Of a stretch of 64,000 bases of DNA, positions 28,915 to 30,825 are shown one piece after another. Every line of letters begins with the position of its first letter. Position 1 is the first letter of the stretch. The translations under genes were made by a program, and so were the position numbers. The DNA lies in the sequence record OR067838.1, one strand, 5' to 3'. The notes beneath the pieces were generated by a model. It saw only the letters and a list, made by a program, of their open reading frames with translations. It ran no database searches and had not been told where the DNA came from. The DNA comes from Escherichia phage KKP 3954.

Positions 28915-28937
28915 CAAAAAGCCTCCAATAAGGAGGC
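28915..28937 (-). terminator. rho-independent terminator downstream of tRNA cluster
   Basis: GCCTCC-AATAA-GGAGGC hairpin with U-tract on minus strand. Confidence 0.45.
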
Positions 28938-29053
28938 CAATAAATACTGTTAATTTGAAATGCTTTATTATGATTGTGCGTTAAGGAGTCGCACCCCTCC
29001 ATCTTAGAAGGAACCAGGCAAGGTCTTCAAAGATACCGCTGGCAAGCGATATT

Positions 29054-29132
29054 TGGAGGCGGGAATTGGATTTGAACCAATGATCTCCAGCATATGAAAC
29101 TGGCGAGGACGACCAGACTCCTCTATCCCGCT
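29054..29132 (-). tRNA. tRNA-Met (CAU), CCA encoded
   Basis: Manual fold: acceptor AGCGGGA/UCCCGCC, D-stem GAGG/CCUC, anticodon loop UUCAUAU, T-arm AUUGG-UUCAAAU-CCAAU. Confidence 0.6.
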
Positions 29133-29139
29133 ATCATGT

Positions 29140-29208
29140 ATCCCGTGCTGGATTCGAACCAGCGTCACAATAAATTGTGGATCTCTTATCCTGTAAGTCT
29201 AACGGGAA
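29140..29208 (-). ncRNA. tRNA-like RNA with aberrant anticodon arm
   Basis: Canonical T-arm GCUGG-UUCGAAU-CCAGC and 6-bp acceptor, but the middle folds only as CACAA-UUUA-UUGUG; 69 nt. Confidence 0.35.
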
Positions 29209-29620: not shown

Positions 29621-29933
29621 CCTATATATTTACTATACTACATTTTACTATTTGTTGTCAAGACTTTTATTGATTGGGACAGTGACGAGTATCCCGTTGG
29701 GTGACTAGCCCTACGTTCGGTAAGCTAACTTAAAATAATACAAAACCAAAGTCAAATATTATTCTTCGTTGCTGTCGATGGGAGAGCCGCTTCTCATTTT
29801 GCCCCATCCAACCCTACTCCGGTCAAGTTTCGGGTGACTCTTTTTGTGATCAACACAATACTAAGAACACTGTCTTTCGAGCAGACCTTGTGCACAGGAA
29901 CGACGATCAATCACAATGCTCTTAATGTTGTGT

Positions 29934-30008: not shown

Positions 30009-30015
30009 AATGCTG

Positions 30016-30091
30016 GGACTCGGCAGGATTCGATACCTGCAATTCCAGAAGCCTATTGGCGACTGGGGGTTTACCTTAACTCTACAAGTCC
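30016..30091 (-). ncRNA. tRNA-like RNA with 8-nt T-loop and no canonical anticodon arm
   Basis: Perfect 7-bp acceptor and T-stem GCAGG/CCUGC with loop UAUCGAAU; interior gives only short tetraloop hairpins. Confidence 0.3.
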
Positions 30092-30098
30092 ATAATTC

Positions 30099-30184
30099 TG
30101 GCGATGAGTATAGGATTCGAACCTATATTGTTCTTTCGAACACGGATTAACAGTCCGCCGCTTAAACCGTTCAGCCAACTCATC
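30099..30184 (-). tRNA. class-II-shaped tRNA with anticodon GUU (Asn anticodon on Ser-like body)
   Basis: 7-bp acceptor, G73, anticodon stem GCGGA/UCCGU, loop CUGUUAA, long variable arm GUUC-GAAA-GAAC. Confidence 0.45.
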
Positions 30185-30190
30185 TTAATT

Positions 30191-30278
30191 TGGTGGTGAG
30201 TGATGGAGTCGAACCACCCGAATCGCAATGATAACAGATTTACAGTCTGCCCCGCTACCCCTACGGAATTAACTCACC
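30191..30278 (-). tRNA. tRNA-Tyr (GUA)
   Basis: 88 nt with long variable arm, anticodon loop CUGUAAA, A73, CCA encoded. Confidence 0.6.
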
Positions 30279-30409: not shown

Positions 30410-30495
30410 TGGCGGTAGATGTAGGACTCGAACCTACACGCCGTTTCCGACTACAGTTTAGCAAACTGTCGTGGCTACCATTTCACCAATCTACC
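30410..30495 (-). tRNA. tRNA-Ser (GCU)
   Basis: Long variable arm GUCG-GAAA-CGGC, anticodon loop UUGCUAA, G73. Confidence 0.65.
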
Positions 30496-30500
30496 TAATC

Positions 30501-30591
30501 TGGCGGAAGGAGGGAGAGTCGAACTCCCAAGGCTCTTTCAAGCTCGGCGGTTTTCAAGACCGTTTTCGTCGCCACATCGATTTGCCCTTCC
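30501..30591 (-). tRNA. tRNA-Ser (UGA)
   Basis: 91 nt, long variable arm, anticodon loop CUUGAAA, T-arm GGGAG-UUCGACU-CUCCC; position 8 is C. Confidence 0.5.
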
Positions 30592-30825
30592 ATACTTATA
30601 ATCTAACATAAAATAATGATTGTTGTCAATACTTTTTTAAAACATTTTACCATGAATGGTGACTCCACCAACCCCCGTTCTCCACGAACGGTGCTCTTCG
30701 AGCATTTATGTCTTCTAATATAACCGTGGCCTTTGTTTATAATGTCTGACATACTTGCCTCATTCTCTGCCACCATGATCAGTAGTGGGTTCAAATCACT
30801 TGAGCTAATTCATGTTAAAATGTTC

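Follow-up and report, generated by a model that had tools for sequence, protein, structure and literature searches.

In bacteria, a long variable arm is, by the textbook rule, confined to the tRNAs for Leu, Ser, Tyr and Sec. The nearest literature to the gene described here concerns the allo-tRNAs, or (8/4) tRNAs, which have an 8/4 or 9/3 division between the acceptor and T stems and carry Ser or Ala identity elements; some allo-tRNAs sit in phage tRNA clusters, and some have anticodons that do not match their Ser or Ala identity (Mukai et al., PMC5389517). Other phage tRNAs act against host defences. The tRNA-Tyr of T5 counters retron-Eco7, and rescue by phage tRNA-Tyr needed an intact anticodon, i.e. 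translation (Azam et al., PMC11555353); the tRNA-Lys of T5 counters PARIS (PMC11464382). A tRNA-Asn from the T5-like phage SP15 was cloned as a non-rescuing control against PrrC170, with its structure not commented on (PMC11555353).

The window analysed here, a stretch of 64,000 nucleotides from Escherichia phage KKP 3954 (OR067838.1), contains a tRNA gene that combines the anticodon GUU with a long variable arm. Like the allo-tRNAs, it has an unusual class II-like outline; it differs from them in its standard 7-bp acceptor and 5-bp T stems and in its Asn identity, and the 12-bp acceptor/T arrangement of the 8/4 or 9/3 type was not found in it. Like the anti-defence phage tRNAs, it is a copy of a host isoacceptor with a divergent body in a tRNA-rich region, but those tRNAs have named defence targets, whereas no defence that targets tRNA-Asn is linked to the window tRNA(GUU). 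PARIS was considered as a system targeting tRNA-Asn and was dropped, as Asn is not mentioned in PMC11464382. Judging from its sequence and those of its relatives, the gene almost certainly carries Asn and not Ser, and it is likely to be ordinary in its function, with an architecture that is unusual and unexplained.

The 2.2 kb around the gene are 98% identical by BLAST to many phAPEC8-like E. coli phages, and the window phage is a phAPEC8-like E. coli myovirus of the genus Phapecoctavirus. The tRNA array lies on the minus strand from ~30977 to 29054 and includes ten ARAGORN tRNA calls, one of which, tRNA-Asn(gtt) of 86 nt with an encoded CCA, falls at exactly 30099–30184 (Table 1). The Rfam RF00005 covariance model matched the same interval over its full length with 60.5 bits (E = 6e-12; gathering threshold 29 bits), a score higher than those of six of the ten other tRNA matches in the array. 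In the Rfam alignment, CUGUUAA forms the anticodon loop and ~12 nt of the variable region are handled as an insertion, so that the covariance model and ARAGORN both place the anticodon where the first-pass annotation of this DNA had put it. The perfect 7-bp acceptor, G73, 3-bp D-stem and long variable arm of that annotation, which had named no strand, are likewise present and lie on the minus strand, the acceptor being Watson-Crick throughout and the D-stem having G13.A22 next to its three pairs. The variable-region helix is present in the single-sequence fold, and the last base of the trailing AAU acts as U48.

Table 1 Parts of the tRNA(GUU) gene and neighbouring features in the window
Feature	Position	Strand	Basis or remark
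Whole tRNA(GUU) gene with encoded CCA	30099–30184	-	ARAGORN, Rfam RF00005
Acceptor 5' strand GAUGAGU (G1, A2, U3...)	30178–30184	-	Seven Watson-Crick pairs with 30103–30109
U8 G9 between acceptor and D-arm		-	Reading of the sequence
D-arm GCUG-AACGGUUU-AAGC	30160–30175	-	3 bp plus G13.A22; A15 pairs with U48
G26 and anticodon stem-loop GCGGA-CUGUUAA-UCCGU	30142–30159	-	All 18 bases as in E. coli asnT 26–43
Anticodon GUU (AAC/AAU codons)	30149–30151	-	ARAGORN, Rfam; plus strand reads AAC
Variable region GUUC-GAAA-GAAC-AAU, 15 nt	30127–30141	-	Hairpin (G)UUC-GAAA-GAA(C), then unpaired AAU
T-arm AUAGG-UUCGAAU-CCUAU	30110–30126	-	Rfam, family covariation
Acceptor 3' strand ACUCAUC (30103–30109) and discriminator G73 (30102)	30102–30109	-	Rfam
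tRNA-Tyr(GUA), class II	30191–30278	-	Rfam, 39 bits; no ARAGORN call
tRNA-Ser(GCU)	30410–30495		15-nt variable region; 225 nt from tRNA(GUU)
tRNA-Ser(UGA), class II	30501–30591	-	Rfam; no ARAGORN call
Candidate sigma-70-like promoter TTGACA-18-TAGATT, with TG	30600–30629	-	Consensus scan only

Asn identity in E. coli resides in G34, U35, U36 and G73, a set that can be transplanted into another tRNA (Giege and Eriani, PMC9976931), and all four bases are present in the window tRNA. For comparison, E. coli K-12 tRNA genes were taken by coordinate. The asnT, asnU, asnV and asnW genes share with the window copy GUU, G73, the segment comprising G26 and the anticodon stem-loop (18 of 18 positions) and the 7/5 division of acceptor and T arms. 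They differ from it in the acceptor stem, where none of the 14 bases are identical, in the D-stem, which in the window copy has 3 bp with G13.A22, and in the variable region, where the loop of 4–5 nt expected of a class I tRNA (5 nt in E. coli tRNA-Asn) is replaced by a 15-nt hairpin region. The short variable loop is a structural trait of cellular tRNA-Asn and not a known determinant for AsnRS. U1-A72, which is required for the GatCAB route and is present in E. coli tRNA-Asn, is replaced in the window copy by G1-C72. This pair is not among the listed E. coli AsnRS determinants (PMC9976931).

The outline of the window tRNA looks class II and Ser-like in its G1-C72, U8-G9, C11-G24 and 3-bp D-stem, so it was reasonable for the first-pass annotation to describe a Ser-type body with an Asn anticodon. 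Ser identity lies in the long arm and its orientation, G73 and the acceptor stem, where bacteria have two 'absolutely conserved' pairs, G1-C72 and G2-C71 (PMC9976931). The window tRNA has the long arm, G73 and G1-C72, but its pair 2-71 is A-U, whereas G2-C71 is present in both tRNA-Ser of the same phage (acceptors GGUAGAU and GGAAGGG) and in all three E. coli K-12 tRNA-Ser genes compared. The arm consists of 4 bp (three core pairs plus G-C) followed by three unpaired 3' bases, in contrast to the longer stem and 0–2 unpaired 3' bases of tRNA-Ser. This layout, with ~1 unpaired base, a stem of 3–4 bp, a loop of 3–5 nt and three unpaired bases, is that of the E. coli tyrT arm (C-GUC-AUC-GAC-UUC) and of phage tRNA-Tyr. 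The likeness to the arm of the neighbouring tRNA-Ser(GCU) that had been pointed out therefore holds for the 15-nt length and not for the stem or the geometry, which is Tyr-like. With A-U at 2-71, this arm, the full Asn identity set and the asnT-identical anticodon arm, the reading of the body as Ser-type is not supported. The Tyr anticodon GUA is one base from GUU, but tRNA-Tyr carries A73, which is critical for TyrRS, and the window tRNA has U35 and a G73, a base that blocks LeuRS and TyrRS (PMC9976931).

Other Phapecoctavirus isolates have the same gene, in which only the D-loop, T-loop or tail of the arm is changed. Among close relatives, pair 2-71 is A-U or G-C and pair 3-70 is U-A, G-C or C-G, and GUU and G73 are constant. 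GUU is not a sequencing accident, as the independent Phapecoctavirus isolates all retain GUU and G73 and several hundred phage records carry a tRNA-Asn homologue. BLAST homologues annotated as tRNA-Asn were found in 446 phage records, covering T5-like phages (Demerecviridae), T4-like phages (Winklervirus, Moonvirus and Karamvirus), Vequintavirinae, Proteus phages and jumbo phages; the long-armed gene is thus already annotated as a plain tRNA-Asn in hundreds of GenBank records.

In IMG/VR, a pattern scan that required an Asn anticodon arm and, at class II spacing behind it, a T arm gave 68 contigs with the strict pattern and at least 120 matches with a looser one, and the ARAGORN-confirmed set comprised at least 137 distinct long-armed tRNA(GUU) sequences. 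In the 137 among the matches listed, the variable region measures 9–22 nt, with a mode of 15–17. Against the 68 viral contigs, the strict pattern occurred at six loci in 185,579 bacterial and archaeal species (one genome each), in keeping with the first-pass view that a class II outline with GUU is not a normal cellular isoacceptor. ARAGORN confirmed four of the six cellular loci, two of which lie in phage-like tRNA arrays, while one, in a Devosia MAG, looks chromosomal. Since the cellular loci are few and two of the four confirmed ones are in phage-like arrays, the family is almost exclusively viral. The Devosia gene (locus L076, 2414–2497, on a 135-kb contig) lies near genes for a DUF2125 protein and a response regulator and has a 13-nt variable region without an obvious hairpin.

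The place of the long form within tRNA sets was judged in 20 arrays with at least 15 isotypes. Among the matches listed, it is the sole tRNA-Asn in 17 of the 20, and an ordinary tRNA-Ser is also present in 17 of the 20. A short tRNA-Asn occurs beside the long one in about a quarter of the long-Asn loci, often adjacent to it. Among neighbours of the long tRNA-Asn, Cys ranks next after Asn and Met in frequency, and, Asn apart, the acceptor stems of tRNA-Cys are on average the most like those of the long form. In the T5-like phage SIY1lw (L001, 3914–4081), tRNA-Cys and the long tRNA-Asn are 6 nt apart, with D-arms alike at 13 of 16 positions by an eye count.

The family as a whole has Asn-like acceptor stems. 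In the 137 distinct long tRNA(GUU) among the matches listed, G73 is present in 91% and U1-A72 in 60%, with no constraint at pairs 2-71 and 3-70; the short tRNA-Asn encoded on those contigs have a similar acceptor profile, with U1-A72 in 52%. Phage tRNA-Ser (n = 96) have G1-C72 in 89%, G2-C71 in 96% and A3-U70 in 84%. The acceptor stems of the long forms are closer to those of the co-resident short tRNA-Asn than to those of class II tRNAs (p ~5e-5). A naive Bayes isotype classifier was built on the acceptor stem, positions 8–9, the discriminator, the T-arm and loop positions 32, 33, 37 and 38; it sees neither the anticodon and its stem nor the D-arm or the variable region, and its cross-validated accuracy is 72%. 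It assigned 94 of 134 long forms among the matches listed to Asn, the same rate as its recall of true tRNA-Asn (10 of 14), and 1 to Ser and 4 to Tyr.

The arms of the family are also unlike those of tRNA-Ser. A stem of 3–4 bp with 3–4 unpaired 3' bases, as in the arms of phage and E. coli tRNA-Tyr, is found in 100 of 133 long tRNA(GUU) among the matches listed. Ser geometry (at least 4 bp, within a defined range of 4–7 bp, with 0–2 unpaired 3' bases) is found in 135 of 147 phage tRNA-Ser as against 14 of the 133 long forms; the arm stems of E. coli tRNA-Ser have 5–7 bp. The Ser acceptor signature and Ser arm geometry occur together in none of the 133 long tRNA(GUU) among the matches listed, compared with 70 of 147 tRNA-Ser. 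The long tRNA-Asn of Erwinia phage pEp_SNUABM_01 matches E. coli tRNA-Asn at 32 of 34 positions over 10–43 and has the same T-loop, and it reads as a host-type tRNA-Asn that appears to differ mainly by an inserted hairpin. The D-arms of some family members resemble that of E. coli tRNA-Tyr. An origin from tRNA-Tyr was considered and not upheld: over 104–137 cases, the acceptor stem and D-arm were not preferentially Tyr-like, and only the arm geometry was, so that an origin from a class II donor is conceivable.

These data bear on the proposal, also made in the first-pass annotation, that the gene encodes a serylated tRNA reading AAY codons. Such a tRNA would derive from tRNA-Ser(GCU) by a C35-to-U35 change and would serve deliberate recoding or mistranslation. 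GCU and GUU are one base apart, 225 nt separate the gene from a tRNA-Ser(GCU) whose arm likewise measures 15 nt, and anticodon mutants of tRNA-Ser remain serylated in other systems (PMC9976931). However, that neighbour differs from the gene in the stems of the anticodon and extra arms as well as in the acceptor and D-arm, the anticodon arm of the gene is identical to that of the host tRNA-Asn, the acceptor stems of the family are Asn-like with both Ser features together in none of the 133 long forms among the matches listed, and the long form is the only tRNA-Asn in most near-complete arrays, which already have a tRNA-Ser. We consider such a seryl-tRNA extremely improbable, and the gene offers no evidence of recoding.

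A further alternative is a dual identity, in which the tRNA would be mainly charged with Asn and a fraction serylated through the arm and G73, so that AAY codons would at a low level be read as Ser instead of Asn. The window copy has partial Ser determinants (G1-C72, G73, C11-G24, the 3-bp D-stem and the long arm, with a variable region of 15 nt as in the phage's own tRNA-Ser(GCU)), and its body scores close to Ser in the classifier, where it is an outlier (Cys -30.8, Ser -31.2, Asn -36.5). Some serylation is conceivable because SerRS does not read the anticodon (PMC9976931). Against this, the window copy has A2-U71 where bacterial tRNA-Ser has the absolutely conserved G2-C71, and its arm has three unpaired 3' bases as in tRNA-Tyr, a feature that matters since class II synthetases discriminate by how the arm is oriented and how many bases are left unpaired (PMC9976931). 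Pairs 2-71 and 3-70 vary among close relatives, which indicates that positions read by SerRS are free to drift. In addition, AAY makes up 5.6% of the phage codons (56 per 1000 in ORFs, or about one codon in 18), so appreciable misreading as Ser would be costly. We regard dual identity as improbable.

Both the cloverleaf and the extra arm are maintained by compensatory evolution. In 80 family members, compensatory changes were found at 18 of 20 cloverleaf pairs. In a whole-tRNA MAFFT alignment the length-variable arm was misaligned and was left unpaired by RNAalifold; a fixed-length segment was used instead, from the 34 members with a variable region of exactly 15 nt, as in the window. The three core arm pairs are formed in 33, 34 and 32 of these 34 sequences and are changed on both sides in 14, 20 and 12 of them. 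Register-slide controls gave 31–43% pairing, and none of 500 shuffles equalled the observed covariation. These fixed-register tests supersede a first test that allowed any register, in which 42–50% of shuffles or chimeras formed at least 3 bp. Over all arm lengths, 103 of 121 distinct arms fold into hairpins of 3 bp or more, with 47 different stem sequences; when strands were swapped among members, 10.5% paired, compared with 9% for genuine tRNA-Ser arms. The covariation shows that the insert has to remain helical, from which an advantage of its own does not follow. The pattern of compensatory change suggests that the arm is most likely kept as a selected helix. The core of the tRNA follows the usual rules: G15 occurs with C48 in 52 of 52 cases and U48 solely with A15 (p = 7e-10), the window copy having A15-U48. 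As the variable region ends in a base that takes the role of position 48, the core folds normally and the hairpin is inserted between 44/45 and 48.

This canonical structure also weighs against a role outside translation, whether as a decaying pseudogene or as a decoy or sponge that would occupy a host nuclease aimed at tRNAs or another tRNA-binding factor. Phage tRNAs are known to act against tRNA-cleaving defences (PMC11555353, PMC11464382), and the same array contains two degenerate tRNA-like elements. In the window tRNA, by contrast, every helix and the 15-48 pair covary, the T-loop and anticodon loop are canonical, CCA is encoded and the Rfam score exceeds most of those in the array; the long form fills the Asn slot in complete sets, and rescue by phage tRNA-Tyr in Azam et al. 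required an intact anticodon (PMC11555353). A decoy, which had been put forward as one reading of the gene, is therefore unlikely, and we consider a non-translational role as a whole highly improbable.

We consider it probable that the window gene is a functional elongator tRNA-Asn that is charged by the host AsnRS, decodes AAC and AAU, and has a variable loop into which a hairpin has been inserted. Host AsnRS would recognise the tRNA through GUU and G73, and the Asn-charged tRNA would read AAC and AAU in the translation of the AT-rich, Asn-rich phage proteome. A hairpin with a stem of 3–4 bp, a tetraloop and three trailing bases, inserted between positions 44/45 and 48, would produce the class II outline, which would then reflect an insertion into an Asn tRNA rather than the remnant of a Ser tRNA with a mutated anticodon. 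Such a decoding role would fit the usual roles of phage tRNAs in meeting codon demand and in keeping translation going as host tRNAs run short.

AsnRS belongs to the class IIb synthetases. Its relative AspRS is reported to approach the tRNA from the variable-loop side (Ruff et al. 1991), so the extra arm might hinder charging with Asn. Charging of the window tRNA by AsnRS, if it takes place, would mean that an enzyme of this class copes with a large insertion on the presumed approach face of its tRNA, a point relevant to identity rules and to orthogonal tRNA design. For annotation, the practical outcome is that the gene stays a tRNA-Asn.

Hairpins of the same build occur in the variable loops of phage tRNAs for Ile, Thr, Met, Cys, Lys, Asp, Glu and Trp, and a T5-like tRNA-Thr(UGU) is among these hairpin-bearing class I tRNAs. 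Among 78 hairpin-bearing class I tRNAs, 69 retain the majority discriminator of their own isotype, with U73 in Cys, A73 in Ile, Met and Lys, and G73 only where it is native (Asp and Trp). Because the hairpin forms keep their own discriminators, the arm appears to be independent of isotype; such retention is what isotype-independent insertion would predict and is the opposite of the prediction for Ser-derived chimeras, which also tells against a seryl-tRNA origin for the window gene. Individual hairpin-bearing loci include L008 and L042 (T5-like, Thr-UGU), L022 (Cys, Thr and Ile), L074 (Lys, Ile and Glu) and L110 (Lys).

Frequencies were estimated in viral arrays chosen only for containing tRNA-Asp; a separate scan for the short-armed form under the strict pattern gave at least 120 matches. 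In these Asp-anchored arrays, 6 of 56 distinct tRNA-Asn (11%) are long-armed, the highest rate of any class I isotype, followed by Trp (9%) and by Thr and Ile (8%), with most others at or below 5%. Overall, hairpins are present in about 3–10% of genes for class I isotypes other than Asn. They are modestly enriched in arrays with a long tRNA-Asn, at 5.2% versus 2.9% (p = 0.013). In the converse direction, 30 of 86 tRNA-Leu in the Asp-anchored arrays lack a long arm according to ARAGORN calls, an example being the 77-nt tRNA-Leu(UAA) called by ARAGORN in a T5-like Salmonella phage (L001, 1843–1919).

The persistence of the arm and its coexistence with short tRNA-Asn genes hint at a distinct role. 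With low confidence, the arm may alter how the phage tRNA looks to tRNA-binding proteins other than AsnRS, such as nucleases or enzymes that modify or process tRNAs. A bolder possibility, which we think rather unlikely, is that the arm is a selected functional module grafted onto class I phage tRNAs to mark or shield the phage copy. Such a module, on the same doubtful footing, would have been added most often to Asn and also to Thr, Ile, Cys, Met, Trp and other tRNAs, leaving recognition by their synthetases intact. It might protect the tRNA from host tRNA-cleaving immune nucleases or allow a phage factor to tell phage tRNAs from host tRNAs. If true, this would explain why the arm has persisted through deep divergence, why long and short tRNA-Asn stand side by side and why hairpin-bearing isotypes tend to share phages, and a functional arm would add a structural strategy to the emerging range of means by which phages turn tRNAs against host defences.

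A class II-shaped tRNA-Asn conserved across T5-like, T4-like, phAPEC8-like and many uncultured phages runs against the textbook rule on long variable arms. We found no description of a class II-shaped phage tRNA-Asn in the literature searched, which covers few subscription journals; nor was arm insertion found described as a recurring trait of phage class I tRNAs, although an older mention, such as one in the T5 tRNA sequencing papers of the 1980s, is possible. Aminoacylation, expression or proteomic data on the window tRNA or its homologues were not found in the literature searched. The run downstream of the candidate promoter at 30600–30629 is Ser(UGA)-Ser(GCU)-Tyr-Asn. This candidate promoter, located by consensus, is predicted to drive the tRNA run that includes the Asn gene.

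Several minor features of the array were also observed. A second near-consensus sigma-70 promoter (TTGACA-18-TATAGT) is present at 29632–29661 on the minus strand, so that two sigma-70-like promoters of the same orientation (29632–29661 and 30600–30629) split the array into parts, and a strong terminator-like hairpin closes the array at 28920–28938 on the minus strand. The acceptor of the tRNA-Tyr(GUA), GGUGAGU, differs from the adjacent Asn acceptor GAUGAGU solely at pair 2-71; this tRNA-Tyr has an odd UAAUU before its CCG...CGG D-stem and is labelled 'tRNA-Pseudo-GTA' in phage Mt1B1_P17. The tRNA-Ser(UGA) has a match to the tRNA-Sec model as its sole Rfam match, at 35.7 bits, below the threshold of 47 bits. 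Two tRNA-like elements on the minus strand have neither an ARAGORN nor an Rfam call. The first, at 30012–30091 between the Asn and Thr genes, has a 7-bp acceptor (GGACUUG/CGAGUCC) and a T-arm (GCAGG-UAUCGAAU-CCUGC), and its anticodon region forms a stem with an internal hairpin (CCAG..GCC-AAUA-GGC..CUGG) without a 7-nt loop; its fold has an MFE of -27.6 kcal/mol (z = -2.8). The second, at 29133–29206, has an acceptor CCCGU/ACGGG, a T-arm GCUGG-UUCGAAU-CCAGC and an 'anticodon' hairpin CACAA-UUUA-UUGUG with a loop of only 4 nt. The tRNA-Met(CAU) at 29054–29132 on the minus strand has an A1/C72 mismatch atop its acceptor and an unusual anticodon loop, UUCAUAU, and could be an initiator-like or lysidine-type tRNA.
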